Source: Spirochaetales bacterium
GTDB lineage: Bacteria > Spirochaetota > Spirochaetia > SZUA-6 > JAFGRV01
Direction: 5' to 3'
Length of the DNA: 64,000 nt
Assembly: GCA_016930085.1 (NCBI GenBank)
Contig: JAFGHO010000016.1
Coordinates: 31,340 to 95,339, forward strand
The position numbers and the translations under genes are program-made. Below are positions 1,051 through 56,840 of this stretch, piece after piece. Under the pieces are notes generated by a model. The model had not been told where the DNA came from and ran no database searches. It saw only the letters and a program-made list of their open reading frames with translations. How positions within the stretch are numbered: the stretch's first letter is position 1; each line of letters begins with the position of its first letter.

Positions 1051-1173
1051 TGTCCCACAAGCCGATTACTCTGTCAAGGGAGCGCCGTTTATGAGGCTGC
1101 CGGACGTGAACGGGAAAATATTCCGACATGCGATATTACCGGCCGGTTTTTTTATTAAATTCACATTGTACGT

Positions 1174-40904: not shown

Positions 40905-41642
40905 TCATCGCATTCCCGTTTTCCGGCGGTAATTCTGAAAGACATGGCCGTGTCCCGGTATGATATAGTCCGATGATTCGATAATGGCGTTCATCGCTTC
41001 CGCGCACTTTTCCTTTCCCATATTACCGGCGTTATACGGCCACGCCTCCCCCCGTTCGTAATACGATTGCGAAACGATCGCGTCCCCGGCGATACAGAAA
41101 ACCCATCCCCCGTATTCCGCGAGAAGGGAGCAATGATCCGGTGTATGTCCCGGTGTCGGCAGCAAGGTGCAGCCCGCAAAGGTATCCCCTGCTCCGCAAT
41201 AACTCGGCGGCATCATGTGCGTAAAACCGCACTTTTCGGCAAGCACCTCGAGGTTCAGCCCCTTCTCCGGCCCGGTGGTGTAAAGCCGCGCGTTCGGGAA
41301 AAACGGGAGGTTGCCGAAATGATCGTGATGCCAGTGCGTGATAAAGATGCCCGCGATACTTTCGAAAGAGAGCCGTTGAAGCGTCAGATGGTAATTCAGC
41401 ATCGCTTTGTTCAATTCCCTCGAAGCGGGCTCCAGATTCCACTCATCGGCATAGCCGGTGTCGACCAGATAATGCTTTCCCCCGAAGGTAATCCGGACGA
41501 CCGACGAGTCGCCCGATTTCAGGAACTGCTTCCGGTACTCTGTGAAATCGGGATTATAACGCTCCCCCGCTTCGATACCAAGGGTTCCCGTTTTCACGAG
41601 GGCGAGTGTCTCTATCAATTGATTTCTTTTTTTTATCTTCAT
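40905..41642 (-). CDS. MBL-fold metallo-hydrolase
   Basis: 'ITHWHHDHFGN' is the HxHxDH motif, and a downstream 'PGHTPDH' is present. Its start overlaps the stop of the upstream PHP-UvrD gene by 4 nt. Confidence 0.7.
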   Translation of the reverse strand: MKIKKRNQLIETLALVKTGTLGIEAGERYNPDFTEYRKQFLKSGDSSVVRITFGGKHYLVDTGYADEWNLEPASRELNKAMLNYHLTLQRLSFESIAGIFITHWHHDHFGNLPFFPNARLYTTGPEKGLNLEVLAEKCGFTHMMPPSYCGAGDTFAGCTLLPTPGHTPDHCSLLAEYGGWVFCIAGDAIVSQSYYERGEAWPYNAGNMGKEKCAEAMNAIIESSDYIIPGHGHVFQNYRRKTGMR

Positions 41643-44600
41643 TGCGTATAATCCTTGAACAGCAAACGCTGGCGGTAATCTTCATCGGCCGTTTTTTTTC
41701 TTGCACCCTCCGCATCACTTGTCAATCGCGCGGGGATATCCCGAAGATACCTGCTTTGTTCGTTCTCCTTCCATTTTCCGAAAACCTTGCGGCGTTTGCT
41801 CCATGAAAGATACAGCAGATCTTTCGCCCTTGTTAGGGCGACATAAAAAAGCCTTCGTTCTTCATCGGGATCGCTCGACGGACCGGTCAGGGGGGTAATT
41901 CCCTCTTCGCAGCCCGCGACAAACACAACGGGAAACTCGAGACCCTTCGAAGCGTGGAAGGTAAGCAGCCGTACCGTATCCGTTTTAAAAGGGCACCCGC
42001 TTTCGTTCGGGCCGATCATACAATAGGTGAGAAATCCTTCGAGATCGGATTGAAACCGCCCGGCCGATTCGAGAAGGGCGTCCTTTTTCATGACGATCGT
42101 CTGGTCCGTCACCGGGAAACAGGGAAATGTGTCGAAAATACACTCTAAAACTGCGGGGACCCCTTTTTCTTGAAGCAGCTTGCAAAGGTCACCGTGAAAA
42201 GCCAGCAACTCATCCGTCTTCCGCTGCTGCTTCTCCGTCAAAAGCCCGCTTTCAGCGAGTCCCCTCATCAGACACCGGTCTTCCGTCTGTTTCGCGTTTT
42301 CATCAAGAAATGGAAGCGGTTCATTTTCCGAAAACACCCCGTAAAGATGAACCAGCACATCACGCAGAGAAACGATATCATTTTCGTTCAAAAGAAGGTG
42401 GAGAAGGCTGCCCGCGCAGGAGAACGGTTTTTCCGAAAAAACCGGCCGTGCGGCCCCCCCGCTAACCGGTACGCCGGCTCCCGCCAGAAACGGTACGAGT
42501 GCTTCACCCGCCGCTTTGGTCCGTGTCAGTACGGCAATGTCGGAAAACGAATACTCGCATTTTCCCGCAAAGGCGGAATCCACGGAGGTAAAACTCATTC
42601 CGCCGACGAGTTCCTCTATCCGTGAAGCAATAAAAGCCCCTTCTTCAACCGGTTCTCCCGCCCTGAAAATCAGCACTTGTTCACCCCTGCCCCTGACCGG
42701 TACGAGTGTTTTCTTCCCCGTTGCCCCGTTTTTTCCGATAACGGAAGCCGCCGAACGGAGGATTTCCTCAGTGGAACGGTAGTGATTAATGAGTGTGATC
42801 GAAACGGGTGAATATTCCCGCCCGAGGCGGAAAAACAGCTTCACGTCGGACCCCCTGAATCCGTAAATTGCCTGATCCGGATCACCGATCGCGAAAAGAC
42901 ACCGCCTGAGTCCGTCGTCTGTTTCATGATACCGCGGAAAGAGCGTCGAAACCAGCTCATACTGTCCCGGATTGATGTCCTGAAACTCGTCGATGGCGAT
43001 AAACCTGTATCGCATCCTCAGGGATTGAAGAAGTTCGGGATCTTTTTGGAGGCAGGCGCACGTGCCCGTAATGAGCGACGAAAGGTCGAATCCGCCGTAC
43101 GCCTTGACCGCATCGAGGTAGCGTTGCGCAAGGGAACGGAGCCGTTTATCTGAGGATTCCCGCGGATTCATAAAAAGCCGCTCCATCCTGTCAGCCAGAC
43201 GAAGTACCTCCTTTTTTTTCATATCGGGATTGAGTATGCAAAGCAACTCGATCCGCCTGTATTTATCGTAGATGTTCCTGATTCGTGGGAATCTCTCCCT
43301 GATAATGTCAAGGCAAAAACCGTGAAACGTACAGACCTTGATACCGCCTGAAGACTTCCCCAGCATGACCGAGAGCCTCGATGCCAGTTCCTTTGACGCC
43401 CTGTTGGTGAAGGTGATCGCAAGAACCTGGCCCGATGAGGCCTGCCCGGTTTCGATGAGGCGTGCGATCCACGATGTGAGGGTTTTTGTCTTGCCGGTCC
43501 CAGGCCCGGCCGTAATTAGGAGCGCCCCTTCGGTCGTATTCAGAACCTCCCGCTGCTCCCGGTTGAGGGTATCCTTACTTTCGGGTTCACCGCTTCTTTC
43601 GCTTTTCCCCTTTTCCCCTTTCCGGATTCCCTTGTGCCCGGATGACCGCCGTGGAGAAAATTTTTTTCTTTCCGGAAGATTGCCGGCCTCAAAAAGGCTT
43701 TCCTGGCCGAGCAGGGCTTCGAGTTCATCGGCATCGAATACCCGTATAACACCAAACTCACCGTCGAAACCCGGCTTCGGGCGAATTCTTCCTTCCCTCA
43801 TCCGTCCGATCGCCTCTCGATAAACGGGACCGAACCTTTGTTCGATATCCGGAAGCGGAACATCGAGAAGAAAGGTGAACTCGTTTCCCCCGAATCCGAC
43901 GAGTTCGGCATAGGTCGAGAGAACCCCTTTCGAGCCCGGGCCGGTTCCCGTGATTTCGGAAACGATTTCGGGCAGGGGGATACAATATCTGAAGCCCGCG
44001 GAAGCTGCCGGCTTTATTCCCTTTTCCCTGTCAGCACATTCCAGAACACGGTGCATCACCCCCACGGTAAGCTTTCCCCCGCAGACCGGACACTCACCCG
44101 AGAGTCTCCTGGTTTCTTCCGGATCGCAGCAAATCCCGCATTTCCTGTGACCGTCGAGATGGTATTTCCCTTCTTCCGGATAAAATTCGATCGTTCCCTC
44201 GAAGCCTTCTCCGGTTTTAAGGGCCCGGAACATCGCGTCATAGGTGAGACCGGTTGAAAAAATATTTGCTTCCCGGCCGAGTTTTTGGGGCGAGTGGGCG
44301 TCCGAATTGGAAATCAGGGTATAGCGGTCGAGGGCGCTCCACCGCCAGTTCATTTCCGGATCGGATGAAAGCCCCGTCTCGAGGGCGAAAATATACCCGC
44401 TTAAATCTTCGAAACATTCCTCGATCGTATCGAACCCGCTTTTCGATCCGAAAAGAGAAAACCACGGCGTCCAGACATGGGCTGGAACGAGATACGCGTC
44501 CTCCGACGCATCGAGGACGATCTCGAGCAGGTGTTTGACGTCGAGTCCGAGGATTGGCCTTCCATCGGACGAAATATTTCCGATGGCATCGAGTTTTCTG

Positions 44601-44977
44601 TTTATCTTTTCGGCAACGGCAAAGTCCGGGGCGAAAAGCACGGAATGCACCTTTCTCGTCCGGTCGCCCTTTTTATAGATCGAACTGATTTCCGCCGAAA
44701 GGCAGAAACGGATATCGATATTCCCGCACCCGGCATCGTTGAACGGAAGATTCTCCGGGAGGTCGTCCGGCGGATCTTTCAGGATGAAAAAACCGTTCGA
44801 ATCCGGTTTCAGTTTTTCCTTGAGTTCGGAAAACCAGACGGGGTGAGTAAAATCCCCGGTCCCGATCAGATTAATGCCCTTGACCCTCGCCCACCGGTAA
44901 AACCCTTCGAGGTTCGACGCTTTGCTCGTCGCGCGTGAATGACATGAATGAACGTGAAGATCCGCTATATAATTCAT
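41639..44977 (-). CDS. PHP-domain phosphoesterase fused to UvrD/PcrA-like superfamily-1 DNA helicase
   Basis: The N-terminus 'MNYIADLHVHSCHSRATS' is a PHP His-cluster. A Cys4 cluster 'CGICCDPE...CPVCGG' follows. The UvrD Walker A is 'ITAGPGTGKTKT', with 'AITFTNRASKEL', 'DEFQDINPGQYEL' (motif II) and C-terminal helicase motifs. Confidence 0.7.
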   Translation of the reverse strand: MNYIADLHVHSCHSRATSKASNLEGFYRWARVKGINLIGTGDFTHPVWFSELKEKLKPDSNGFFILKDPPDDLPENLPFNDAGCGNIDIRFCLSAEISSIYKKGDRTRKVHSVLFAPDFAVAEKINRKLDAIGNISSDGRPILGLDVKHLLEIVLDASEDAYLVPAHVWTPWFSLFGSKSGFDTIEECFEDLSGYIFALETGLSSDPEMNWRWSALDRYTLISNSDAHSPQKLGREANIFSTGLTYDAMFRALKTGEGFEGTIEFYPEEGKYHLDGHRKCGICCDPEETRRLSGECPVCGGKLTVGVMHRVLECADREKGIKPAASAGFRYCIPLPEIVSEITGTGPGSKGVLSTYAELVGFGGNEFTFLLDVPLPDIEQRFGPVYREAIGRMREGRIRPKPGFDGEFGVIRVFDADELEALLGQESLFEAGNLPERKKFSPRRSSGHKGIRKGEKGKSERSGEPESKDTLNREQREVLNTTEGALLITAGPGTGKTKTLTSWIARLIETGQASSGQVLAITFTNRASKELASRLSVMLGKSSGGIKVCTFHGFCLDIIRERFPRIRNIYDKYRRIELLCILNPDMKKKEVLRLADRMERLFMNPRESSDKRLRSLAQRYLDAVKAYGGFDLSSLITGTCACLQKDPELLQSLRMRYRFIAIDEFQDINPGQYELVSTLFPRYHETDDGLRRCLFAIGDPDQAIYGFRGSDVKLFFRLGREYSPVSITLINHYRSTEEILRSAASVIGKNGATGKKTLVPVRGRGEQVLIFRAGEPVEEGAFIASRIEELVGGMSFTSVDSAFAGKCEYSFSDIAVLTRTKAAGEALVPFLAGAGVPVSGGAARPVFSEKPFSCAGSLLHLLLNENDIVSLRDVLVHLYGVFSENEPLPFLDENAKQTEDRCLMRGLAESGLLTEKQQRKTDELLAFHGDLCKLLQEKGVPAVLECIFDTFPCFPVTDQTIVMKKDALLESAGRFQSDLEGFLTYCMIGPNESGCPFKTDTVRLLTFHASKGLEFPVVFVAGCEEGITPLTGPSSDPDEERRLFYVALTRAKDLLYLSWSKRRKVFGKWKENEQSRYLRDIPARLTSDAEGARKKTADEDYRQRLLFKDYTQ

Positions 44978-45258
44978 CCCCGCCAGATTAACAGATTCGG
45001 GGGTGATTGTACAGGGACTTTTTTTCCTGTTTCGCCGGGAGTGTATCCCCGCATCGAACGGCGGATTGACGATATCGCCGGCCCTTAGCGGCTTTGCTTC
45101 GTTACACGTTGAAGCCGCGCGTTCATGGCGTGTTTCTCCATGATTGTGCGGAAAACCGCCTGTGTTACTGCGTCTTTTCGTATTGTTTTAACGAAAAAAA
45201 AATTATAAATGTCATTTTTTTGTTTTTTTTTTATTGACTCTTTTGGAATTGTATTTTA

Positions 45259-45274
45259 CGATTTGCGCAAATCG
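45259..45274. promoter_or_regulatory. Perfect 16-bp palindrome CGATTTGCGCAAATCG in the promoter region of the precursor operon
   Basis: It lies about 110 bp upstream of the precursor ATG, between a TTGACT -35-like hexamer (45234) and the RBS. An extra CAAATCG half-site follows. Confidence 0.3.
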
Positions 45275-45382
45275 TAATGATTTACACAAATCGCAAGCGC
45301 CCGGCGATGCCGTTTTTATTCATTTGGATGACATTACCTATGCTCGTTGAGCATTGACATTTTTACGAAAGGAGGAAACCTT

Positions 45383-45529
45383 ATGTACGAATCTCCATCA
45401 ATTGAAATGCTGGGTGATTCCCAGATGAACAACGTAATGGGAGCCTTTGTTTGGGCAATAGGTCCTGTTTTTGTTGCAGTAGCAGCCGTTGTATTACTCA
45501 TTTTGTCAGTAATTGATATCACTCCGTAA
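45383..45529 (+). CDS. RiPP/bacteriocin precursor peptide (48 aa): double-glycine-type leader with a Cys-free hydrophobic core
   Basis: An AGGAGG RBS lies 7 nt upstream. The leader is MYESPSIEMLGDSQMNNVMGA and the core is FVWAIGPVFVAVAAVVLLILSVIDITP. Leader positions L-12, M-7, V-4 and G-2/A-1 fit the GG-leader consensus. Confidence 0.6.
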   Translation: MYESPSIEMLGDSQMNNVMGAFVWAIGPVFVAVAAVVLLILSVIDITP

Positions 45530-45552
45530 CTGATTATCAATTAACTGAGCCA

Positions 45553-45587
45553 CGGTCGGAATTGAGATATTATCTCTTTTCCGACCG
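45553..45587 (+). terminator. Partial terminator/attenuator hairpin between the precursor and the maturase genes
   Basis: A 9-bp stem cggtcggaa...ttccgaccg has a ~17-nt loop and is followed by a weak T-rich tract. Confidence 0.4.
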
Positions 45588-45665
45588 ATTTACATTTGTA
45601 AAAGCTCATTATCGTATAATAAAATACTGATGAAATTATAATACAAATCAGGAAAGGAGTCAACT

Positions 45666-46712
45666 ATGGCGGAATTGCAATTGCCGGTGAATACATCGAT
45701 ACAGATCAAGCATGCAGAAATCGTAAAAGGGCCCACACAAATCGCTTTCGATATCACGAACAAATGCAATTTTAGGTGCCTTCACTGTTTTAATCGAAGC
45801 AGCGAGAACGACCGGATGAACGATGAATTAACCGACAAACAGGTAAAATATTTTATAAAAGATATAATCAAAATGAAACCGTTTAATATCTGTCTGTGCG
45901 GGGGAGAACCCCTGATCAGGTTTCATTTGATATGCGACATCTCCTCGATGCTCAAGGAGAACGACATCATGGTTTCCATGGTGACGAACGGATACCTGCT
46001 GACGGAGGAAAAGGCGGAAAAATTGTTCGCTTCCGGCGTACGCCGCGTCCAGGTAAGCCTCGATGGGGCCTGTCCGGAAACCCATGAGCGATTGAGAGTG
46101 AAAAAGGGAAGTTTTAATAAAGCGATCGAGGCGATAAAAATATTCAAGACTGCGGGATTCGACGATGTCGGTGTGGCGTTCACCCCGACCAATTTCAATT
46201 GTCACGAGGCAAGCGATGTGATCGCTTTATGCCGGAACCTCGGTGTCAGGGATTTCAGGGTACAGCCATTGATGTGTATCGGCCGGGCGAAGACGAACAT
46301 GGGAAATATACTTCCTTCGAATTACCAATACCGCAACCTCGTCAAGACACTCAATGAATCAAAGACCGAATATACAGACATTAAGATCGAATGGGGCGAT
46401 CCGATCGACCATTTGATTCGCTTCCGTACCGTCACACAACACCTGAACGTCTTTCTCGTCGTTCAGGCGAACGGAGATATAGCGGCTTCCCCGTATTTGC
46501 CGATAACGATCGGCAATATTAAAAAACACTCGATTCTGAAATACTGGAAAAAGGGATTGCCGAAAGTCTGGCAGTTCGAACCGATAAAAAAAATAGCGAA
46601 TAACATCAAATGCATGTCCGATTTCTCCAAAGAACACAAGGATTTGCCGATTGTTTGGTTCGATCAGAATATTCGATACGATGTTATCGACGACAAACTT
46701 ATCAGTTCATAA
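45666..46712 (+). CDS. Radical SAM peptide-modifying enzyme (partial SPASM/twitch-like C-terminal region)
   Basis: The radical SAM motifs are 'FDITNKCNFRCLHCF' (CxxxCxxC) and 'CLCGGEPL'. 'SLDGACPETHERL' is also present. The C-terminus has only scattered Cys (NFNCHE, IALCRN, LMCIG, IKCMS), so no full seven-Cys SPASM. Confidence 0.8.
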   Translation: MAELQLPVNTSIQIKHAEIVKGPTQIAFDITNKCNFRCLHCFNRSSENDRMNDELTDKQVKYFIKDIIKMKPFNICLCGGEPLIRFHLICDISSMLKENDIMVSMVTNGYLLTEEKAEKLFASGVRRVQVSLDGACPETHERLRVKKGSFNKAIEAIKIFKTAGFDDVGVAFTPTNFNCHEASDVIALCRNLGVRDFRVQPLMCIGRAKTNMGNILPSNYQYRNLVKTLNESKTEYTDIKIEWGDPIDHLIRFRTVTQHLNVFLVVQANGDIAASPYLPITIGNIKKHSILKYWKKGLPKVWQFEPIKKIANNIKCMSDFSKEHKDLPIVWFDQNIRYDVIDDKLISS

Positions 46713-46744: not shown

Positions 46745-47653
46745 ATGAAAAAAGGAACACCGCACTTTAAAAGTGAAAATCTGCTTTACATGAGGGAGGA
46801 AAACAAAGGTTGTGTCACACTGTTATCCAAATTCCACCCCGAACTGAGAGAATTGGTGATAAACAAAACAACGAAAGAAATCATCGATTTATGCGACGGT
46901 CAAAACACGATCGAAGACATCATTTCAAAAATGAAAGCGAAATATCCGATGGTCCAGTCGGCCATCATTACAAATGACGTACACAAAATTCTCGCTAGTA
47001 CCTCCAGATTGATGTTGATTCAATGGGAACACGAGAACCCGTACCTTTTTCTGAGAGAAGAAATCATAGACGATACGTACGGATTGAGAATCGGCGTCGA
47101 AGACGATTTGTTGAAGATAAAGAAATTTATTATGGACAGCGATATTCTTACAAATGGGAACGACGTTTCTTCCTCGCATTTTTATTATAAAAATGTTTAT
47201 GTCAACACATATGAATACGACGAAGTTTTATTGCGGCAGAAAATATTCAATTTTAACGAGGAGTTCTTCTTTTTAACAAAAAACGGGGAAATAGAAGGAT
47301 TATTATCCTTTCAGCTGCCCATTCCCCCGTCAAAGGCCGCCGTATTGAAGATGTGCATTTGTGCAAAAGAATATTTCAGGGAATTGTTTCGCTATGCATC
47401 GGACAATCTCCCGCACATATCCGTTTCGCAGCTTTCGAAAATTAAATTTATTATCAGTTCGAAGGAGCCTGTTGACGACTCCCTGGTTGAATTGCTAATA
47501 TCTGAAGGATTCGGGGACGAGGGATTGTTCAGGGACGAACTGGGTTTTGATCATGATATTTCCGTCATGGGCTTGAGCTACGATCCCGTCCTTATCGATG
47601 AGATCGAAAAAAACAGGAAAGCGGCTACCGCTATCGGCGGACTGGCGCAGTAG
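46745..47653 (+). CDS. PqqD-like RiPP recognition element (RRE) fused to a ~200-aa domain of unknown function
   Basis: The N-terminal block 'VTLLSKFHPELRELVINKTTKEIIDLCDGQNTIEDIISKMKAKYP...ITNDVHKIL' matches the PqqD/RRE consensus ('ln.ta..iw.l.dG..t..ei...l...y......DV..fl'). Confidence 0.5.
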   Translation: MKKGTPHFKSENLLYMREENKGCVTLLSKFHPELRELVINKTTKEIIDLCDGQNTIEDIISKMKAKYPMVQSAIITNDVHKILASTSRLMLIQWEHENPYLFLREEIIDDTYGLRIGVEDDLLKIKKFIMDSDILTNGNDVSSSHFYYKNVYVNTYEYDEVLLRQKIFNFNEEFFFLTKNGEIEGLLSFQLPIPPSKAAVLKMCICAKEYFRELFRYASDNLPHISVSQLSKIKFIISSKEPVDDSLVELLISEGFGDEGLFRDELGFDHDISVMGLSYDPVLIDEIEKNRKAATAIGGLAQ

Positions 47654-47721: not shown

Positions 47722-48486
47722 ATGTATCGACGTTATATGTTAAACGTATCGTTTTTCGTTTTGAGTTTCTTTTTCTCGCATTGTTTCATTTTCGCGGAAC
47801 CGGCCCTGGGGAAAATCGTTTCGGATATAAAAAACAGTAAAAAGGAAATGAGCGGCAAAATCGCCGATATAACGATCATACAGGAAAGCGAAATATATTC
47901 GGAGAAGGGAACGATGCACCTCCGGTCGACGATTTACAAAAAGTCAGATAAATTCCGGGTCGAGAATTCCTGTGAGTTCGCCGGCGCAATTACCGAAGAA
48001 ACAATCATCTATGACGGCCGCGATTACTGGAAAATAGGAAGCGGCCTGAAACAGAAAATAAACAGGGACGAAATGCTGGAGAAGAACAAAACGATTGCCT
48101 TGCAGAAAAACTGGTGGGAAATAATTTCGGAGGAATCACGGCTTGAACAAGCCGACGATGAGGTAACGAACTGCTATATCATCCTGAGTGATAACAACAA
48201 TGAAACATATCGGTGCTGGGTTAACAGGGACAATCTGCTTCTCGAAAAAATCGAAATCATGTTTTCCGAAGACGACAGCATCATTATCGTCTACGGCGGT
48301 TTTGAATCAGTTGTCGACGGGCACGAAATGGCGACGAAAATCGAGCTGTACAGAAACGGTATATTGGACTCGAGAATTTCAATCAAAAAGATCGACATAA
48401 ATACCGGCGTCTCCGACGAGTTATTCGATCCGGACAGGGAAAAAAGTTTCGACCTGAATCGTATATTAAAGGATCTTTTTCAATAA
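47722..48486 (+). CDS. Secreted protein, LolA-like / unknown function
   Basis: A signal peptide 'MYRRYMLNVSFFVLSFFFSHCFIFA' is present. The length and composition suggest a beta-rich lipoprotein-carrier-like fold. The fold assignment is weak. Confidence 0.35.
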   Translation: MYRRYMLNVSFFVLSFFFSHCFIFAEPALGKIVSDIKNSKKEMSGKIADITIIQESEIYSEKGTMHLRSTIYKKSDKFRVENSCEFAGAITEETIIYDGRDYWKIGSGLKQKINRDEMLEKNKTIALQKNWWEIISEESRLEQADDEVTNCYIILSDNNNETYRCWVNRDNLLLEKIEIMFSEDDSIIIVYGGFESVVDGHEMATKIELYRNGILDSRISIKKIDINTGVSDELFDPDREKSFDLNRILKDLFQ

Positions 48487-48563: not shown

Positions 48564-49055
48564 ATGAGATTATCCAGAATAATCGGATTCCTGAACAGGA
48601 GAAAGGAAAATGAAATGACGGGGGCCGGATTTATCGCCGGAACCGTCCTGGGAATTATCATCGGGCTGTATATCTTTCTTTCGGTACTTATTCTGAAAGA
48701 GGTCACATTAAACCAGCTCGAACTCTCACTCAAGCCGTACGAACGGCTTATCAGCATGGACCCGGTTACCATTTATTATATTACCCTCATCGCGACCCCG
48801 CTTATCGTGGTCTTCATTCATATGATAATCGGTGTGGTGATCGGGATCGGTGTCAATAAACTGAAAAAACCGTCCGCCTGGAAGATCTTGCTCGGCGGGG
48901 CCGCTCTGGGGACGCTTTTCGGCTTTATCACGAGTGCCCCGGCCCCGAGGATTGTTACGTTTATAGTCTGTTTGGCGGCGTGGATTGTTTTTTCCCTTGT
49001 TTTTCTCCTGACCGTTCGTTTATCGAACAGGGAACCGGAGGATAAAACGGCCTGA
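48564..49055 (+). CDS. Small 4-TM membrane protein (candidate immunity protein)
   Basis: Four hydrophobic helices are present. The RBS is 'gagagga'. No catalytic motifs were found. Confidence 0.4.
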   Translation: MRLSRIIGFLNRRKENEMTGAGFIAGTVLGIIIGLYIFLSVLILKEVTLNQLELSLKPYERLISMDPVTIYYITLIATPLIVVFIHMIIGVVIGIGVNKLKKPSAWKILLGGAALGTLFGFITSAPAPRIVTFIVCLAAWIVFSLVFLLTVRLSNREPEDKTA

Positions 49056-49172: not shown

Positions 49173-50948
49173 ATGGAAGAACCGATGAATAAAACTATAC
49201 TGGCGTATAAGGATTTAAAACGGTTACTCGGAATTTTTACGACCTATATTAAAGGGAAAAAGGGGTTATTGTTCCTCGGCGTATTTCTGGGGATAATAAG
49301 CCGGTTATGTGCGTTATCCATCCCCTTGTTTTCGAAATTTATTATCGACACCGTCATCTTCAAAGGTTTTGACAGTTACCTCAACATAACGATACTCTCC
49401 GGGATCGTCATTCTCATTCTTCTTGCGGGGTCATCGATTCTGTCGAATTATCTTCTCTTTAAGGTAAACGGTCTGGGCGGGATCAAGTTCAAGTATTCTT
49501 TTTTCAGAAAACTGCAATATGCGCCATTTACCTTTTTTACCACTATTCAAAAAGGCGCGATCGCCCACAGAATATTGACGGACACCGAACGGATTATCGG
49601 TTTCTGGACGCAGACCGTCGCGACATTGCCGCTGATCGTTATCCTGGGCGCGGGCGGGGCGATAATGCTTCATTACAATCCCGTTCTCTCCTACTTTATC
49701 TTTAGTATTATTTTGCTTCAAATCCTTATCATCGTCGTCTTCAAGGGCCCGATCATGCGGTCCTCATTTTCAATCAAGGAAAACATGGAAAAGCTCACTT
49801 CCTATACCGTGGAGTTTTTTACAAAAATAGAACTGGTGAGAACCCATTCCACCGAAAAAAGCGAACAAAAGAAATTTCTGGGTTCAGTACGGAAATTGTT
49901 CCGGGCGGCATTCAGAAACTTCATGCTCAACAAGGGATATAACAACATCATCGCCTTTCTTTCCTATCTGTGGATCTTCGTCGTGCTCTGGTACGGCGGC
50001 ACACAGATACTGGCGGGTAACATGACAATAGGGACGCTTTCCGCGTTTTTACTCCTTGTCAATATCCTCAACACTCCCATTTTCATGCTGACCGAACTGG
50101 TCCTTTCATTTCAACAAATACGAACCAGCCTTTACCGGTACGAGGAATTCGCAAGGGTCGGAAGATATCTGCCGCCACCTTCCGGCGGCAGGCCCCTGAA
50201 ACCATACAAACCCCAGGAAGGCAGGATCGAATTGAAAGGCGTATCGTTCGGCTACAATGACCATTACGTTCTCAGAAACATCAATGAAGTCATCGAACCG
50301 AATTCCATAACTGCCCTGGTCGGCAGGACCGGCGCAGGTAAATCCACCTTTTGCCGGCTACTGATTAGACTGTTCGATCCGCAATCGGGCTCCATCTATC
50401 TGGACAACAGGGACATCAGGGAAATCAAAATACCTTCTTTAAGAAAATCGATTCATCTCTCTCTGCAGAACAACCATGTGATGAACGGCACACTCTGGGA
50501 AAATCTGACATACGGTACCGGTCATGTCGATAAAAAGGATGTCCTTCTGGCAATGAAAAAAGCGGGAATCGATTTTCATTATAAAATGCCGGCCGGATTC
50601 GACACGTTGATCGGTGTTCACGGATTGAATCTGTCAGGCGGGGAATGCCAGCGGATCGCCATAGCGAGGGCATTGCTTTTAAATCCGAAGGTTTTCATAT
50701 TCGACGAAACGACGGCATATATCGACAACAGGACGGAAGAAAAGATCAAGGATGTATTATGCGAATTGAAACGATCGGGCACCGTTATTCTCATCACGCA
50801 CCGCAGCTCGACGCTGGATGTCGTCGATAATGTCCTGTTATTCGATAATGGAACGATAACGGAATCCGCACCCTCGCATGTTCTGAAACGGGACAGGGGA
50901 AGCGAGTTTTTTAAATCTTTTTATTCAAAAGGAGGCACCCCGGAATGA
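49173..50948 (+). CDS. ABC transporter, fused permease/ATPase (peptide/bacteriocin exporter type; no fused C39)
   Basis: Six N-terminal TM helices precede Walker A 'GRTGAGKST', the signature 'LSGGECQRIAIARAL' and Walker B 'IFIFDETTAYID'. Confidence 0.85.
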   Translation: MEEPMNKTILAYKDLKRLLGIFTTYIKGKKGLLFLGVFLGIISRLCALSIPLFSKFIIDTVIFKGFDSYLNITILSGIVILILLAGSSILSNYLLFKVNGLGGIKFKYSFFRKLQYAPFTFFTTIQKGAIAHRILTDTERIIGFWTQTVATLPLIVILGAGGAIMLHYNPVLSYFIFSIILLQILIIVVFKGPIMRSSFSIKENMEKLTSYTVEFFTKIELVRTHSTEKSEQKKFLGSVRKLFRAAFRNFMLNKGYNNIIAFLSYLWIFVVLWYGGTQILAGNMTIGTLSAFLLLVNILNTPIFMLTELVLSFQQIRTSLYRYEEFARVGRYLPPPSGGRPLKPYKPQEGRIELKGVSFGYNDHYVLRNINEVIEPNSITALVGRTGAGKSTFCRLLIRLFDPQSGSIYLDNRDIREIKIPSLRKSIHLSLQNNHVMNGTLWENLTYGTGHVDKKDVLLAMKKAGIDFHYKMPAGFDTLIGVHGLNLSGGECQRIAIARALLLNPKVFIFDETTAYIDNRTEEKIKDVLCELKRSGTVILITHRSSTLDVVDNVLLFDNGTITESAPSHVLKRDRGSEFFKSFYSKGGTPE

Positions 50949-51595
50949 GATATGGGCCGTATCGGCGTCTTGCGTGCTCCCTCCTTTTTCTTGCCGTCAC
51001 ACTCAATGCCGCCTCGGGCGGCCAGACCGTCGTCACACCGTATTACCGGCTGAAGTTCGAATCGATGGACCGGCAGATATCCGAGTATGCGTGCGGCATC
51101 GCCGTGTTGACGACGTTATTCAATCATTACTTCGAGATAAACCTTTCACAACAAGAAGTCATCGATCGATATGTCGCACAAATTATGGAAGAAAGGCGAG
51201 GAATTAGTTTTTTAGACTTAAAAAAAATCGCCGCCGACCGGGGATTTACCGCAAAGGGATTTAAAATCAACCTCGCCGCCCTGCTGGAATTTTTGAAAGT
51301 CAATACCGTGCCGCTTATCATTCATCTGAATGTCAGGTACGGCGCGGAGAAGGTCGGTCACTTCTGCCTGTTGCTTGGTGAAACGGACGGTTATTTCATT
51401 ATCCAGGACCCGGCATACGGCAATTGCGTTTATACGAAAAGCCAGTTGCTCGATAAATGGAGCGGCAATATCCTCGTTATCGTTCCGCCGGAAAACGACA
51501 AGACGACCGTTGAACGCAGCCGGGAGAATATGGAAAAAGTCATCGAACGGGGAATAGAACGAATACAAAGGATGTTATATTATGAATCATACTAA
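50945..51595 (+). CDS. Standalone C39-like cysteine peptidase (double-glycine leader peptidase type)
   Basis: A signal/anchor is present. The catalytic Cys lies in 'SEYACGIAVLTTLFNHY'. The His is in 'VGHFCLLLG' and the Asp in 'IIQDPAYG'. It overlaps the ABC stop by 4 nt. Confidence 0.6.
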   Translation: MRYGPYRRLACSLLFLAVTLNAASGGQTVVTPYYRLKFESMDRQISEYACGIAVLTTLFNHYFEINLSQQEVIDRYVAQIMEERRGISFLDLKKIAADRGFTAKGFKINLAALLEFLKVNTVPLIIHLNVRYGAEKVGHFCLLLGETDGYFIIQDPAYGNCVYTKSQLLDKWSGNILVIVPPENDKTTVERSRENMEKVIERGIERIQRMLYYESY

Positions 51596-52493
51596 AAACC
51601 CTCTCTTCATCATACTTTGCGCGTCTATTTCGCTCTGTACCGCAAACGATATACACGCGCAATCGGAGAATTCATTATTCAAATTCGGTCTGGAAAAAGC
51701 TTTGGTCCTTTCGGATTCGCTCCATTACAGAAGCGCGACGTCAACGGATGTACAGGAACGGACGATCACAAACACGTTTCAGGCGGGCTATTTCTTTACC
51801 GATGCCTTGTCTCTGTTTCTTACCGTTCCTTTTTCATGCGCTATCTATTCGATTAAAAACATCAATAAAGAAGCAGCCTATGAAACCCAGGCGTTCCTTC
51901 GACTTGAAAACAGCAGCGCGGCCCTTCATTATAAACTCGATTTTTCCCGTATGACCCTCAAAGTCATAGCGGGCCTTGAAATTCCGTCGATGGCCGCCGT
52001 CTGTGACTATTCATCGATCGACAATCCGGGCGACGTTCTCATATCATTCGATTCCGAGTATTCCGATGCCGCACTCGATGATCTCAGAATGTTGACATTG
52101 CTTGCCGGTGAGACATGCTGTTTCACCATAGACCCCGTCATATTGTTCGTATCCCTGAATATTTCATACCCCCTTTGGCGGGAGAAGGATACCGAAGCCA
52201 TCTACACGACGTTCAAGAGCCAGTTGATTCAATCATTGTATTTCATCGTCAACGACTCGATCAGTCTTTTTTACGATATCGGCATCATGCTATACAAGGG
52301 AGAAAATGCCGCCATGATTGAAACCTATGTTGTAAACGGCGGATGCAATATATTGATCTCCCCGACGACGGAAATCGGATTAAATGTAATGACCGCTTTC
52401 AGCGGAAACACGGCCTTCCCGGGTCTCGGCGTCACGCTGACAAAAATAATCAAGGCGGAAGGAAGCGACGCCGGTATTCCTGAAAGCCGTTAA
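51582..52493 (+). CDS. Secreted hypothetical protein
   Basis: A signal peptide 'MNHTKNPLFIILCASISLCTANDIHA' is present. It overlaps the upstream gene by 14 nt. Beta-rich, no motifs. Confidence 0.35.
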   Translation: MNHTKNPLFIILCASISLCTANDIHAQSENSLFKFGLEKALVLSDSLHYRSATSTDVQERTITNTFQAGYFFTDALSLFLTVPFSCAIYSIKNINKEAAYETQAFLRLENSSAALHYKLDFSRMTLKVIAGLEIPSMAAVCDYSSIDNPGDVLISFDSEYSDAALDDLRMLTLLAGETCCFTIDPVILFVSLNISYPLWREKDTEAIYTTFKSQLIQSLYFIVNDSISLFYDIGIMLYKGENAAMIETYVVNGGCNILISPTTEIGLNVMTAFSGNTAFPGLGVTLTKIIKAEGSDAGIPESR

Positions 52494-52556
52494 CCGTCCG
52501 AAGTCCAGGCCGGCGGCGGACGGCCGTTTCCGGAACCGGTTGTCGTGAGAGGGAGT

Positions 52557-53411
52557 ATGAATAAAAAAATCATCCTCTATATTCTCGTCAATTGCATACT
52601 CATCGGAATAGTGGCGGCCGTTTCCGTTATCCTCCATACCGAAATCCGTTATTTCGCGGCGCTTTATATGTTTTTCCCGTTCATTGCGACACTCGTCGCC
52701 GCCGTAAAATACCGGATACCGGCAGCCGACCTGGGATTGAAAATAAGCATCGGTCCGTGGTACGCGGCGGCGTGGATACTCCCCTTTTTTCTCGCCGTTC
52801 TCTCGATCCTCATCAGTCTGATGATGGGACCCGGCATGTCGTTTTCCCCCGGCATGGAAGGACTCGAACGTTTCGGCATCGCCCCCGATGCATTGCCGTC
52901 AAACGGGGGGCTTTCCGTTTGCGGTTGGATCGGCCGTATTTTCCTTGCGTTTGCCGGGGGAATCACCGTCAACGCGATATTCGCGCTCGGAGAGGAAATC
53001 GGATGGAGGGGGCTTCTCTACAAGGAATTGCGCGGCCTCGGTTTCTGGAAATCGTCGCTTGCCGCGGGACTCCTCTGGGGCGTCTGGCACGCGCCGGTCA
53101 TTCTTTCCGGCTACAATTACCCGAACCACCCCGAAATCGGTGTTTTCATGATGACCGCATTCTGCATTCTGCTTTCCCCCCTCATGCAGTTCTTGCGGGA
53201 AAAAACGGGTTCCGTCATACCCCCCGCCGTTTTTCACGGCACTATCAACGCCTTTGCGGGATATACCGTCATATTGATCAAAGGCGGAAACGACTTGCTG
53301 ACCGGCATGACCGGACTGAGCGGGATGATCGTTTTCCTGCTTATGGACGGCCTTTTGTTCGTTTATATGCGGACAGGGAAAGCGGATGGAGAGGGCAACC
53401 GGGAAGTTTGA
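52557..53411 (+). CDS. CPBP-family (CAAX/Abi) intramembrane metalloprotease, bacteriocin-immunity-like
   Basis: Multiple TM helices are present. Motif 1 is 'FALGEEIGWRGLLY' (EExxxR), with 'FWKSSLAAGLLWGVWH' and 'VFHGTINAF' (His motif). Confidence 0.7.
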   Translation: MNKKIILYILVNCILIGIVAAVSVILHTEIRYFAALYMFFPFIATLVAAVKYRIPAADLGLKISIGPWYAAAWILPFFLAVLSILISLMMGPGMSFSPGMEGLERFGIAPDALPSNGGLSVCGWIGRIFLAFAGGITVNAIFALGEEIGWRGLLYKELRGLGFWKSSLAAGLLWGVWHAPVILSGYNYPNHPEIGVFMMTAFCILLSPLMQFLREKTGSVIPPAVFHGTINAFAGYTVILIKGGNDLLTGMTGLSGMIVFLLMDGLLFVYMRTGKADGEGNREV

Positions 53412-54538: not shown

Positions 54539-55249
54539 ATGCCGTATAGTATTTTAATTGTGGATGATGATAAAGATTTCAGAGTCGAGTTCCGTGATAT
54601 ACTGGAAGAAGAATATGATGTATATGAAGCAGCAAGCGGAGAAAAGGCTATTGAAATCATAAAAAAACCGAATATTGTCGATCTCGCCATTCTGGATGTT
54701 AAAATGCCGGGAATACAGGGAACAGAGGTTTTAAAACAATTAAAGCAACTGGTACCGGACTTGATAATCATAATTGTTACCGGTTATGGTTCAAAGGATG
54801 TCATAATTGAATCCTTAAGAAGGCATGCCGATGATTTTCTGGAAAAACCTTTGAAAATAGAAACGGCGCTGCAAAGAATCAAACAGCTTTTATACAACAA
54901 ACAATGTGAAGTAAAAGGCGTCATTGAAAAATTAAAGCATTTTATCGAAAAAAATTTTCACAAGAAAATAAGTCTAAAGGATGCTTCAAACGTTGTCTGT
55001 TTGAGTCCCAAATATATCTCAAAAATATTTAAAGACGAGGTCGGGATTGGATTCAATGAATATAAACTCAGGTTAAAAATGGAGAGGGCAAAAGAATTAC
55101 TGGGTTTGCATACGTACAATATCAATGAGATTGCCGGTAAAATAGGATATCTGAATATCGAATCCTTTGCAAGGATATTTAAACACCTGACAGGTGTTAC
55201 TCCCTCTGAATATAGACAGCTTTTATTTCATGGAGAAAAACATGAATAA
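54539..55249 (+). CDS. Response regulator with AraC-type HTH output
   Basis: The receiver is 'ILIVDDDKDFRVEF...LAILDVKMPGIQG'. The C-terminal AraC HTH is 'LKDASNVVCLSPKYISKIFKDEVG ... IAGKIGYLNIESFARIFKHLTGVTPSEYR'. Confidence 0.8.
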   Translation: MPYSILIVDDDKDFRVEFRDILEEEYDVYEAASGEKAIEIIKKPNIVDLAILDVKMPGIQGTEVLKQLKQLVPDLIIIIVTGYGSKDVIIESLRRHADDFLEKPLKIETALQRIKQLLYNKQCEVKGVIEKLKHFIEKNFHKKISLKDASNVVCLSPKYISKIFKDEVGIGFNEYKLRLKMERAKELLGLHTYNINEIAGKIGYLNIESFARIFKHLTGVTPSEYRQLLFHGEKHE

Positions 55250-56840
55250 ATTGTTAAAAACCATATTTAGTAAAAACCGGTATCATCCCGACGAATGTGA
55301 TGTGATATTCAATGCTTTTACCGATCCCGTCATTGTCTATAATGCTTTAGGATGTATTATAAAAGCAAACAAGGCAGCAGAAGATTTTTTACAATTCAAT
55401 CCGATAGGATTACATACCATCGGACTTGCCGAAATTCCCGCATCCGGTTTATCGACCGGGAAACCGGATGCGGTCGAGACTCTTTTATCAAAGGCTTTAA
55501 AAGGAGAAATCGGCAAAGATGTATCGTGTCAATTTACGGATAAAAACGGAAATAAAAGGTTTTGCAGCTGTTCAGCCGCGCCAATCCTCGATCGTACCGT
55601 TGTAGCCGGAATTATCCTTGTTTGGCATGACATTACAGAAATAACAGAAAAAGAAAAACAATTGGAAATAAACAATAAAAAGCTGGAAAACCTGGTTAGC
55701 GAAATAAATGAAAAGCAAAAAGTATCGGATAAACAGATAATAAACGATAAGAAAGAAATTGATACAAAAGATTCACAGATAATGGTTTCAAATAAACTGC
55801 TGGAAATAATATTTTCCAATACTCACTTTCTGATTGCTTACTTATCCACGGACTTTACTTTTATCCAGGTGAATGATGCTTATGCAAGGGCATTTAATCG
55901 GTCGCCTGATTTTTTTGCGGGAAAAAATCATTTTGATTTATTTCCCAACGAAGAAAACAAGGCTGTCTTCTCTCACGTTGTAAAATCGGGAGTTTCCTAT
56001 ATAACATATGTAAAGCCGTTTTTTCATCCCGACAAATCGGAATCCGATGCTACCTATTGGGATTGGAGTCTTCAGCCTATAAAAAACAATAATAAAGTTG
56101 AAGGAATCATTTTAGTCCTCATCGATGTGACCAGAAGGAAAAAAGCGGAAGAAGATTTATTTAATGCAAAAAGATTATCGGATATCGGAACACTGGCGGC
56201 GACGGTGGCCCATGAACTCCGCAATCCCCTTGCGGTCATTCAGGCAGCTATTTATAATATCAAGAGAAAAAGTCGGAATAGCGATATTGAGAAACATATA
56301 GAAAATATCAACGCAAAAGTCGAAGAGAGTGAACAGATTATCAATAATCTGCTTGGTTATTCGAAGTTTAAAATTCCTCAAAAGACGGACGTTTCAATTT
56401 ATAATTTTTTAAATGATCTGTTTGATGACATCCAGGGCAAAATGACTAAAGACACTATTATCATCAACAGAAAATACGAATCCCTAAAAGATACGATTAT
56501 TCATATCGATCCCGTCCAAATTCGTGAAGTACTCAATAATATAGTGAATAATGCATATCAAGCCATACCGCAGGTTAACGGCCGTATTGAAATTCAGGGG
56601 AATCTCTCAGGTAACAATCGATTGAATTTATACATTACGGATAACGGAAACGGAATAGAAAATGAAGATTTGGAAAAAATATTTAATCCCTTTTTTACAA
56701 ATAAGTCCAAGGGCACGGGATTGGGGCTAACCATCTGTAAAGAGTTGATCAAACTGCATAATGGAAATATAGAAATACTTAGTCAAAAGGGAGAGGGCAC
56801 TATTGTGAGGATTTCCCTTCCTCTAAACGTGATACCATGA
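55242..56840 (+). CDS. Cytoplasmic PAS-domain sensor histidine kinase
   Basis: Two PAS-like regions and a coiled-coil precede the H-box 'ATVAHELRNPLAVI'. The N/G boxes are 'NNIVNNAYQAI' and 'DNGNGIE...GTGLGLTICKELI'. The start MNKLLKT follows a GGAGAAAAAC RBS and overlaps the upstream RR's last codons. Confidence 0.8.
   Translation: MNKLLKTIFSKNRYHPDECDVIFNAFTDPVIVYNALGCIIKANKAAEDFLQFNPIGLHTIGLAEIPASGLSTGKPDAVETLLSKALKGEIGKDVSCQFTDKNGNKRFCSCSAAPILDRTVVAGIILVWHDITEITEKEKQLEINNKKLENLVSEINEKQKVSDKQIINDKKEIDTKDSQIMVSNKLLEIIFSNTHFLIAYLSTDFTFIQVNDAYARAFNRSPDFFAGKNHFDLFPNEENKAVFSHVVKSGVSYITYVKPFFHPDKSESDATYWDWSLQPIKNNNKVEGIILVLIDVTRRKKAEEDLFNAKRLSDIGTLAATVAHELRNPLAVIQAAIYNIKRKSRNSDIEKHIENINAKVEESEQIINNLLGYSKFKIPQKTDVSIYNFLNDLFDDIQGKMTKDTIIINRKYESLKDTIIHIDPVQIREVLNNIVNNAYQAIPQVNGRIEIQGNLSGNNRLNLYITDNGNGIENEDLEKIFNPFFTNKSKGTGLGLTICKELIKLHNGNIEILSQKGEGTIVRISLPLNVIP

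Follow-up and report, generated by a model that had tools for sequence, protein, structure and literature searches.

A radical SAM enzyme very probably devoid of auxiliary clusters as probable sole tailoring enzyme in a widespread RiPP system not described before

The window, that is the whole 64,000-nucleotide stretch of Spirochaetales DNA analysed here, carries a cluster of nine genes on one strand together with a candidate promoter and an RNA element:

45234..45262, + strand: candidate sigma-70-type promoter, TTGACT-17-TACGAT (consensus scan, 9/12 matches)
45383..45529, + strand: precursor peptide gene, 48 aa, with a YxxPxIxxLG leader and a Cys-free hydrophobic core
45546..45608, + strand: strong RNA stem-loop between the precursor and radical SAM genes (MFE -28.6 kcal/mol)
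45666..46712, + strand: radical SAM maturase, 348 aa, CX3CX2C at C34/C38/C41, vestigial twitch domain without cluster ligands
46745..47653, + strand: predicted leader-binding partner, 302 aa, PqqD-type RRE (about residues 37-88) plus GNAT-fold domain
47722..48486, + strand: secreted LolA-like protein, 254 aa, signal-peptide-like N-terminus (PF17131 LolA_like, E = 0.0064)
48564..49055, + strand: small membrane protein, 163 aa, about four hydrophobic segments (hydropathy scan)
49173..50948, + strand: ABC exporter, 591 aa, permease-ATPase fusion without a peptidase domain of its own (PF00664, PF00005)
50945..51595, + strand: stand-alone C39 cysteine peptidase, 216 aa, signal-peptide-like N-terminus (PF03412, 1.4e-19)
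51582..52493, + strand: secreted 303-aa protein, FapF/FilC/porin-like (weak matches only)
52545..53411, + strand: CPBP/Rce1-like intramembrane protease-family protein, 288 aa (PF02517, 4.8e-15)

The promoter candidate is weak, and the scan found no more sites than it did in shuffled sequence. AGGAGG lies at 45370-45375, 7 nt ahead of the precursor ATG, and AGGAAAGGAG is the ribosome-binding site upstream of the radical SAM reading frame. The stem-loop between the two genes (z = -6.27 against 200 shuffles) may set the ratio of peptide to enzyme, by read-through attenuation or by transcript stabilisation; an Rfam search of the 5' region and the intergenic spacer returned no match.

The radical SAM reading frame was found exactly as the initial annotation had described it, and both motifs claimed there were confirmed: CNFRCLHC spans residues 34-41 and GGEPL lies within CGGEPL at residues 78-83. 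Pfam matched Radical_SAM (PF04055, 1.5e-27) and Fer4_12, with no match to the SPASM domain (PF13186), and no NCBIfam model scored above its cut-off, the top model being AhbD at 136 bits versus 500. The predicted structure (pLDDT 94) has a six-stranded beta/alpha core, and the CX3CX2C and GGE motifs and partial (beta/alpha)6 barrel of the radical SAM superfamily are all present. The barrel is followed by the beta-hairpin and helix of a twitch fold. In a fold comparison the closest structural relatives were SkfB (26.6), SuiB (23.2), anSME (23.1), CteB (20.5) and TigE (18.5).

Four scattered C-terminal cysteines, at residues 179 (NFNCHE), 189 (IALCRN), 204 (LMCIG) and 316 (IKCMS), had been taken to allow at most one, twitch-like, auxiliary cluster. 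Across 75 homologues these positions hold Cys in 19%, 56%, about 0% and 21% of sequences, respectively, and this poor conservation speaks against a shared cluster built from them, so that zero clusters is the better reading. The only invariant cysteines are C34, C38 and C41 together with C76 and C78, and the latter pair directly precedes the likewise invariant G79-G80-E81. After residue 210 the homologues have between zero and four unconserved cysteines, eight of them having none, and the window enzyme has a single Cys beyond residue 205. SPASM domains bear the seven-cysteine motif CX9-15GX4C-gap-CX2CX5CX3C-gap-C and two auxiliary clusters (PMC6231123); the motif is missing from the window enzyme and its homologues, and none of the 120 listed homologues had a SPASM Pfam match. 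Also absent from the family are the twitch cluster ligands, which flank the hairpin and follow helix alpha2'. A degenerate SPASM/twitch region, as originally proposed, is supported in the form of a single vestige, (C/L)x9Gx4S, derived from the canonical CX9-15GX4C start: position 260 is Cys in 65% of the family and Leu in the window protein, G270 is found in 100%, and positions 275 and 316 are Ser in 91% and 72%. The enzyme is thus of the SPASM/twitch lineage, retaining the twitch fold and having lost the auxiliary-cluster cysteines, and this conservation pattern argues strongly that the family very probably has no auxiliary cluster.

The 48-residue precursor, MYESPSIEMLGD-SQMNNVMGAFVWAIGPVFVAVAAVVLLILSVIDITP, contains no Cys, as had been claimed for the substrate, and ends in IDITP, part of a conserved C-terminal S/T-x-I-D-I-T-P. 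Its record, MBN1696422.1, calls it a hypothetical protein and nothing more, as do those of all precursors of the family; no curated NCBIfam or Pfam model names it, and there was no NHLP or Nif11 NCBIfam match. Family precursors share a leader of about 12 residues, YxxPx(I/V)xxLG, with Y-x-x-P in all 36 collected sequences. Their cores, 32-70 residues long, are rich in Val, Ala, Gly, Leu, Ile and Thr (18.7% Val, 16.5% Ala) and usually Cys-free (32/36), and two, both from bona fide precursors of locus L016, have no aromatic residue. Loci with Cys-containing precursors (L017/L018, L020/L030) also hold extra, larger radical SAM genes. A scan of small reading frames in 80 related loci found 76 of 8346 that fit the leader plus hydrophobic-core pattern, 65 of which adjoin the radical SAM/PqqD pair on the same strand, and a precursor adjoins the radical SAM gene in 61 of the 80 loci; this pairing is far beyond chance. 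Divergent precursors occur in multiple copies elsewhere (four each in L016 and L009), and no extra copy was found within the window. One further reading frame considered as a precursor, 61375-61722, was rejected: it overlaps the 59688-63941 reading frame on the opposite strand and lies away from any radical SAM/RRE pair.

Within the hydrophobic stretches of the precursors, residues recur with a period of two: aromatics share parity in 80/104 cases versus 70.6±2.8 expected and Gly in 49/62 versus 43.3±2.3, these values having been computed on related sequences against a shuffle null that ignores relatedness. Odd separations of aromatics are depleted, and a test for opposite parity of Gly and aromatics was not significant (p = 0.15). 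Beta structures, or those in which D- and L-residues alternate, should show such a pattern, unlike alpha-helices, and it would also fit ordinary beta-strand or amyloid-type peptides.

A PqqD-RRE plus GNAT-fold partner protein is adjacent in 76/80 related loci and fused with the radical SAM enzyme in locus L009, a PqqD domain is present in 29/29 partner proteins, and the family comprises 300 clusters (50% identity) at E<=1e-10. A search of the RRE alone against the PDB gave no match. The C-terminal domain has a GNAT fold in a structure model built from a 13-sequence homologue alignment (pLDDT 76). No partner matched a GNAT Pfam model at E<=1, no curated NCBIfam or Pfam model names the domain, and the Q/R-x-x-G-x-G/A pyrophosphate loop at beta4-alpha3 is absent in 29/29 partners, the segment being poorly conserved.

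The downstream genes suggest export and immunity. LolA_like matches were found in 4/5 orthologues of the secreted protein at 47722-48486 (best 1.1e-8), whose gene has the same position in L081, L084 and L003; it is a proposed periplasmic carrier for the hydrophobic peptide. The four-segment protein at 48564-49055 matched no NCBIfam or Pfam family, its position is taken by a 160-aa gene in L081 and L084, and it may serve in immunity or as an export accessory. Of the 80 related loci, 64 have an ABC exporter, and that of the window has HlyB/bacteriocin-exporter-type NCBIfam matches, all below cut-off. The C39 enzyme, whose NCBIfam matches to FilB (5e-19) and FapD (8e-18) also fall below cut-off, is conserved in six related loci (L002, L003, L032, L081, L083 and L084) and is the probable leader peptidase, with cleavage predicted at the LG(G/D) motif or immediately behind it. 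The barrel gene always follows that of the C39 peptidase. Its product, probably an outer-membrane beta-barrel, matched FapF in the PDB at E = 0.14, and its orthologues gave weak NCBIfam matches to FilC (0.036), FapF (0.089, one orthologue) and the porin PhoE (7e-4). The CPBP protein has several hydrophobic segments, marks the cluster end in L081, L083 and L084, and is a candidate self-immunity or processing protein.

The system is widespread. A total of 520 radical SAM homologues were retrieved (43-100% identity among the 120 listed), and a scan of GTDB species genomes yielded 221 loci, in Bacillota, Caldisericota, Collinsella, Bacteroidota, Actinomycetota and a Methanomassiliicoccaceae archaeon. 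The full nine-gene synteny recurs in L081, L083 and L084, with precursor orthologues at the same position. Because every Collinsella precursor occurs on at least 1000 contigs, the human gut probably often contains the product. No other tailoring enzyme was present in six gene-annotated neighbourhoods, and keyword and sequence-motif searches of the literature found no description of a radical SAM/RRE-GNAT/precursor system. The initial annotation had read the enzyme as a peptide maturase rather than a cofactor enzyme, and the PqqD-type partner and adjacent precursor bear this out; non-RiPP homologues in conserved non-peptide neighbourhoods would have counted against that view, and the homologous loci came out for the RiPP reading instead. 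The further suggestion of a new enzyme-substrate pairing likewise stands, with no NCBIfam model, precursors recorded as hypothetical proteins and no paper found. The enzyme is very probably a RiPP maturase of a new family and the only tailoring enzyme of this undescribed system.

What reaction does it catalyse? A thioether is effectively excluded as the family-wide reaction by the Cys-free cores, and an aromatic crosslink was rejected as the shared reaction on account of the two precursors that have no aromatic residue. Since Cys is mostly missing and aromatics are missing from those two cores, the shared reaction would fall on aliphatic residues or the backbone, and a redox-neutral reaction is most likely because there is no auxiliary cluster to accept an electron. 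Together with the absence of any other tailoring enzyme and the invariant CxC before GGE, these features point to redox-neutral L-to-D epimerisation, an assignment made tentatively from sequence and held at well under even confidence. Radical SAM epimerases require a cysteine hydrogen-atom donor (PMC8326336). Auxiliary clusters are likewise missing from the proteusin epimerases PoyD and OspD, and EpeE acts as an epimerase on Val and Ile (PMC13012085). The period-2 pattern of the cores also counts in favour of epimerisation. In SP lyase, where Ser142/Asp143 stand in place of the GGE motif, the donor is Cys140, two residues ahead of them (PMC3467042); by analogy, C78 in C76-F-C78-G-G-E would sit at about the same place, the equivalence being uncertain by one residue. 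The pair may instead be merely structural, because the EpeE and PoyD donors, C223 and C372, lie elsewhere in sequence, and the C-terminal S-x-I-D-I-T-P that one subfamily conserves could point to a reaction at a specific site.

In the proposed mechanism, the RRE would bind the YxxP leader and the GNAT-like domain would hold or scaffold the greasy core with no catalytic role of its own. Reductive cleavage of SAM would generate a 5'-deoxyadenosyl radical that takes the C-alpha hydrogen from aliphatic core residues, and C78, possibly with C76, would supply hydrogen from the other side, leaving D-residues, probably at several positions. The host is a diderm: the ABC transporter would export the modified peptide, the secreted FapD-like C39 peptidase would trim it, the LolA-like protein would carry it and the FapF-like outer-membrane barrel would be its exit, with the four-segment and CPBP proteins protecting the producer from a membrane-active product. 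As a whole, this combination of a sole tailoring enzyme, redox-neutral epimerisation, export route and immunity is the best explanation, at a confidence that approaches an even chance from below. Doubtful, by contrast, is the bolder reading that the enzymes form a second, independently evolved epimerase family free of auxiliary clusters, with a GGE-adjacent Cys donor and with products that would be alternating D/L beta-helical (gramicidin-/polytheonamide-like) membrane channels. Its members would range from Collinsella of the human gut to Spirochaetes and archaea and would work with a pseudo-GNAT chaperone and, in diderms, with LolA/FapD/FapF-like export.

A net oxidation of the core, whether a C-C or C-O crosslink, formation of cyclopropylglycine from Val or Ile, or desaturation, would need the electron to go back through the radical SAM cluster itself or to an external acceptor, with no auxiliary cluster involved. 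Crosslinking or oxidising enzymes, among them the cyclopropyl synthase TigE, are the nearest structural relatives, the Val-rich cores resemble cyclopropylglycine substrates, and a Trp/Tyr-x-aromatic motif is conserved along with S-x-I-D-I-T-P in one subfamily. Missing auxiliary clusters are no proof of redox neutrality, because radical SAM enzymes that oxidise without them exist, DesII for example. However, the cluster ligands are lost across the whole family, whereas to our knowledge the characterised peptide crosslinkers and cyclopropyl synthases of this lineage all keep SPASM/twitch clusters, and a universal crosslink would find no single residue pair, given the two aromatic-free L016 precursors and widely differing C-termini. 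Net oxidation is accordingly regarded as unlikely.

Still less probable are two readings in which the peptide or its partner plays another role. Elp3 is a precedent for cooperation of radical SAM and GNAT domains, and the obligate pairing, with one fusion, would suit a GNAT domain that binds acyl-CoA while the radical SAM enzyme makes an acyl- or carboxymethyl-type radical, or one that acylates directly, so that the peptide ends up acylated or alkylated. The missing pyrophosphate loop speaks against it, as do the scarcity of Lys, which most cores do not have, and the leader, which still masks the N-terminus in the cytoplasm; such a role is quite improbable. That the peptide is instead modified in place, as a small membrane protein or as starting material for a PQQ- or mycofactocin-like cofactor, is very improbable indeed. 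The hydrophobic stretch does resemble a transmembrane segment, and the PqqD domain of the partner is accompanied by sub-threshold NCBIfam matches of the enzyme, but these fall far short (MftC, 112.3 bits versus a cut-off of 265; PqqE, 84.5 versus 381), and the precursors have no conserved Tyr, Glu or Val-Tyr site. The period-2 pattern speaks against a simple alpha-helical anchor, and secreted bacteriocin-like peptides typically come with such a set of ABC exporter, C39 peptidase, CPBP-type immunity-like genes and multiple precursors.

Radical SAM RiPP maturases rank among the main sources of new peptide chemistry, and almost all characterised members carry SPASM/twitch clusters. The present family is distinctive in its size, in having shed its auxiliary clusters, in its fixed RRE plus pseudo-GNAT partner and in its Cys-free, almost purely aliphatic substrates. 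If epimerisation at multiple sites is correct, it would represent a second evolutionary origin of peptide epimerases and a compact way, with a minimal leader, of making membrane-active peptides rich in D-amino acids, which would be useful for engineering. If it is not, the enzyme would perform a new reaction on unactivated aliphatic residues. On either reading, three genes constitute a testable minimal system.

Compared with known systems, SkfB (the twitch-domain sactisynthase of sporulation killing factor, PDB 6EFN) forms a Cys-to-C-alpha thioether and binds an auxiliary [2Fe-2S] cluster via Cys351, Cys385 and Cys387 (PMC6231123), ligands that the window enzyme does not have. Further differences are the Cys-free substrate of the window system and an RRE carried by a separate protein, and the NCBIfam SkfB model scores 86.7 bits on the window enzyme versus a cut-off of 300. 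More generally, sactipeptide and ranthipeptide synthases use a core Cys donor to form a thioether, and such a donor is missing from the window precursor and from 32/36 family cores. In EpeE/YydG a T-SPASM domain holds one auxiliary [4Fe-4S] cluster and the donor is Cys223, features not found in the window enzyme, and sequence similarity is confined to residues 25-120 (2.6e-8). SP lyase is nearer in chemistry, being redox-neutral and without an auxiliary cluster, with a donor Cys immediately before the motif that binds the SAM amino group, like C76/C78 (PMC3467042). The precursors of MftC and PqqE present a C-terminal Gly-Val-Tyr (MftA) or Glu/Tyr (PqqA), in contrast to the IDITP end seen here.

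With lasso peptides the window system shares the combination of a YxxP leader and a PqqD-like RRE, for which YxxP is the characterised recognition sequence (PMC12710340), and leader binding is predicted on that basis. Lasso clusters also encode an asparagine-synthetase-like cyclase and a transglutaminase-like (B2) leader protease, neither of which is among the window cluster proteins. Fap secretion resembles the window cluster in its stand-alone secreted C39 peptidase followed by a probable outer-membrane barrel, although family scores all lie far below cut-offs (FapD, 64.5 bits versus 330 on the window C39 peptidase). There are no FapA, FapB, FapC or FapE homologues in the window cluster, where the cargo is instead a 48-aa peptide predicted to be modified by the radical SAM enzyme. 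We know of no counterpart in proteusin clusters to the RRE-GNAT partner and Fap-like export genes. Proteusin leaders are long and nitrile-hydratase-like or Nif11 (PMC8326336), whereas that of the window has about 12 residues with YxxP, and the PoyD hydrogen donor lies near residue 372, whereas the candidate donor here is at the GGE motif. Neither the source names nor the family matches obtained pointed to a PoyD/OspD relationship. PoyD and OspD, compared with the window enzyme by description only, resemble the proposed model in having no auxiliary cluster (PMC13012085), and the multiple epimerisations of aliphatic residues, Val/Ala/Gly-rich cores and membrane-active products of proteusins are the same features that make up the working model for the window system.

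The radical SAM protein encoded at 45666-46712 is a peptide maturase tied to one partner and to one type of substrate. When one genome per GTDB species was scanned, 221 loci emerged, and in 76 of the best 80 the radical SAM gene is adjoined by a homologue of the protein at 46745-47653 (RRE-GNAT); precursors of like design adjoin the enzyme pair in 61/80. The initial annotation's assignment of the enzyme to the maturases of ribosomally made, post-translationally modified peptides (RiPPs) was thus right. The features of the locus are:

45383-45529, + strand: precursor gene upstream of the radical SAM gene, start at 45383, 7 nt past AGGAGG, encoding MYESPSIEMLGDSQMNNVMGAFVWAIGPVFVAVAAVVLLILSVIDITP
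45546-45608: very stable stem-loop between the precursor and radical SAM genes (-28.6 kcal/mol, z -6.3), without a clear U-tract
45666-46712, + strand: radical SAM protein, 348 aa, good ribosome-binding site upstream
46745-47653: RRE-GNAT partner, 302 aa, two parts
47722-48486: secreted LolA-like protein (PF17131 in 4/5 orthologues, best 1.1e-8)
48564-49055: membrane protein, about four hydrophobic segments
49173-50948: ABC exporter
50945-51595: stand-alone C39 peptidase, signal-like N-terminus, best matches FilB and FapD
51582-52493: probable FapF/FilC-like outer-membrane barrel, signal-like N-terminus, weak FapF, FilC and porin matches
52545-53411: CPBP protein (PF02517, 4.8e-15)

Pfam detected a PqqD-type RiPP recognition element in all 29 partner members, and a partner profile search returned 300 clusters (50% identity) at E<=1e-10. 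Because the acyl-CoA pyrophosphate loop Q/RxxGxG/A is missing from 29/29 members and the loop segment is poorly conserved, the GNAT-fold domain is read as a probable non-catalytic scaffold. In Caldisericum sp. AR60 (L009:7995-9938) the two proteins are joined as a single 647-aa polypeptide. A Lentisphaeraceae MAG (L025:7965-9827) carries an extended 620-aa radical SAM ORF, which may be a similar fusion, with a separate RRE-GNAT gene upstream.

The enzyme carries CNFRCLHC at residues 34-41 and C-G-G-E-P-L at 78-83, with further cysteines at positions 76, 90, 136, 179, 189, 204 and 316. The only Pfam matches were Radical_SAM (1.5e-27) and Fer4_12, a SPASM domain being absent, and none of 87 NCBIfam matches came near its curated cut-off: AhbD scored 136 bits (cut-off 500), GeoRSP 118 (400), MftC 112 (265), SkfB 87 (300) and PqqE 85 (381). 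The initial description is therefore accurate. Database searching yielded 520 homologues; the 120 listed are nearly full-length, share 43-100% identity and all lack a SPASM match, and 75 of them were aligned. Only C34, C38, C41, C76 and C78 are invariant in this alignment. The four scattered C-terminal cysteines, from which at most one auxiliary cluster had been proposed, proved irrelevant: C179, C189, C204 and C316 are kept in 19%, 56%, ~0% and 21% of members, and the number of cysteines after residue 210 ranges from zero (in eight proteins) to four. The SPASM/twitch motif opens with CX9-15GX4C (PMC6231123). At position 260, 65% of the family have Cys while the window enzyme has Leu; G270, nine residues on, is invariant, and S275 (91%), four residues further, occupies the expected second-Cys position. 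The family thus retains this opening in vestigial form, and its sequences mark the enzyme as a twitch-lineage member that has lost its auxiliary-cluster ligands. Since the named cysteines are unconserved and the second motif Cys is replaced by S275, zero auxiliary clusters is more likely than one. Just N-terminal of the vestigial hairpin lies a near-invariant W-G-D-P-x-D-H (residues 243-249, window ~46392-46412; D245 and H249 100%, D248 97%), and Y222, Y277 and Y293 are likewise invariant; these residues could make up a substitute site, structural or metal-binding, or belong to a path that quenches radicals.

The precursors consist of a Y-x-x-P-x-(I/V)-x-x-(L/V)-(G/N) leader, a short acidic/polar linker and a strongly hydrophobic stretch. 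This pattern fits 76 of 8346 small ORFs at the 80 loci, 65 of the 76 being co-oriented with and adjacent to the enzyme pair, and the design is also seen in Collinsella, Aceticella, an actinobacterial MAG and a Methanomassiliicoccaceae archaeon. YxxP is a characterised recognition sequence for lasso-peptide RREs (PMC12710340), and by analogy the leader would fit the PqqD-type partner. Every precursor looked up is annotated as 'hypothetical protein'. Some loci carry several copies, four each in L016 and L009: at L016:9087-9773 one enzyme pair is followed by four tandem genes, and in L009 four divergent genes (838-3705) lie 4-7 kb upstream of the fusion gene. Two L016 cores contain no aromatics and a single Glu as their sole charged residue (e.g. 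GAGAQPLGLLLIGSVTQIILVAPAVIVAVAVA). The Collinsella loci (L033-L080) hold two distinct versions of the system, near-ubiquitous in human-gut Collinsella, and their precursors P0147 and P0167 each occur on at least 1000 contigs. Four further loci (L017, L018, L020, L030) encode, besides this enzyme pair, another pair plus a larger radical SAM protein (441-494 aa). Their precursors bear C-terminal Cys (e.g. ...WVWCDPYW, ...IGVSC), pointing to hybrid pathways in which a thioether-type step is carried out separately.

Close relatives (56-65% identity) keep the same nine-gene order: precursor, radical SAM, RRE-GNAT, ~250-aa protein, 160-aa membrane protein, ABC exporter, C39 peptidase, ~300-aa protein and Rce1-like/CPBP protein. 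The stem-loop may function in attenuation, or else in transcript processing or stability. Components like LolA, FapD/FilB and FapF/FilC are known elsewhere from the sorting of lipoproteins and the secretion of functional amyloids or pili; here the LolA-like protein, C39 peptidase and probable barrel resemble a trans-envelope route dedicated to a very hydrophobic peptide. In monoderm relatives the set is limited to the precursor, both maturation proteins and ABC transporters. We infer a secreted, membrane-active, bacteriocin-like product, which in the diderm host would, judging from family resemblance and synteny, have its own periplasmic and outer-membrane export path. Downstream, a low-GC segment (54539-57217, 0.35-0.37) holds genes for two response regulators, one AraC-type and one single-domain, and for a PAS histidine kinase. 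At 41639-44977 (- strand) lies an unusual fusion unrelated to the peptide system, a 1112-aa UvrD-type helicase; its first 470 residues have no Pfam match and open with HVHSCHS, a motif that recalls PHP phosphoesterases.

In six gene-annotated neighbourhoods the radical SAM protein is the sole tailoring enzyme. Across 36 cores, composition is dominated by V (18.7%), A (16.5%), G (7.9%), L (7.8%), T (6.8%) and I (6.6%). Because 32/36 lack Cys, two lack aromatics, C-termini vary and aliphatic residues are common to all, the family-wide reaction would be expected to act on aliphatic residues or the backbone. Parity was analysed in the hydrophobic stretches of these cores (window and loci L004-L088). 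Aromatics share parity in 80/104 cases against 70.6+-2.8 expected (0/1000 shuffles as high), with i+2 and i+6 in excess and i+1, i+3 and i+5 depleted; Gly does so in 49/62 against 43.3+-2.3 (p ~0.014), clear only for i+1 (depleted) and i+6 (excess). This period-2 signature, only suggestive since the sequences are related and the shuffle null ignores kinship, is expected of beta or alternating D/L structures and unexpected of alpha-helical membrane segments.

C76 and C78, both invariant, directly precede the GGE motif. Radical SAM epimerases need a cysteine as H-atom donor (PMC8326336); the proteusin epimerases PoyD and OspD lack an auxiliary cluster, and EpeE epimerises Val and Ile (PMC13012085). 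SP lyase, a redox-neutral radical SAM enzyme without an auxiliary cluster, places its H-donor Cys140 two residues before Ser142/Asp143, which stand in place of GGE (PMC3467042), so that Cys140 would correspond, to within one residue, to C78. Taken together, the single tailoring enzyme, aliphatic cores, lost clusters, invariant C76/C78, these precedents and the period-2 signature favour, tentatively and at less than even chances, L-to-D epimerisation, one of the reactions suggested initially: a C-alpha hydrogen would be abstracted from core residues and an H atom returned by C78, probably at several sites. Oxidation of side chains or crosslinking, achieved without auxiliary clusters, is a lesser possibility and rather unlikely; in oxidative crosslinking such clusters are commonly credited with electron transfer. 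The GNAT fold of the partner recalls Elp3-like, GNAT-dependent acyl chemistry, improbable here with the CoA loop missing, and a non-secreted membrane role or a cofactor role for the peptide, encoded beside an exporter, is more improbable still. The remaining probability falls to other, unforeseen chemistry.

The enzyme-substrate pairing does appear new, as first proposed: no curated model in Pfam or the June 2026 NCBIfam release covers the enzyme, its precursor or the second domain of the partner, and no literature description was found, although one in a subscription journal is possible. What is new is a radical SAM-dependent RiPP system whose cofactor complement, partner and substrate are unusual. 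It works like an RRE-guided radical SAM RiPP pathway, yet the enzyme falls outside the SPASM enzymes, the cluster-bearing twitch enzymes, EpeE, MftC and PqqE, and the system is distinct from sactipeptide synthases. Its precursor has the wrong leader type for a proteusin, and the partner, without motif A, is unlike active GNATs. While the cluster has no lasso cyclase or protease, it shares the YxxP/PqqD recognition logic of lasso peptides. The enzyme resembles PoyD-type epimerases in lacking an auxiliary cluster, and SP lyase in placing a cysteine at the GGE motif.
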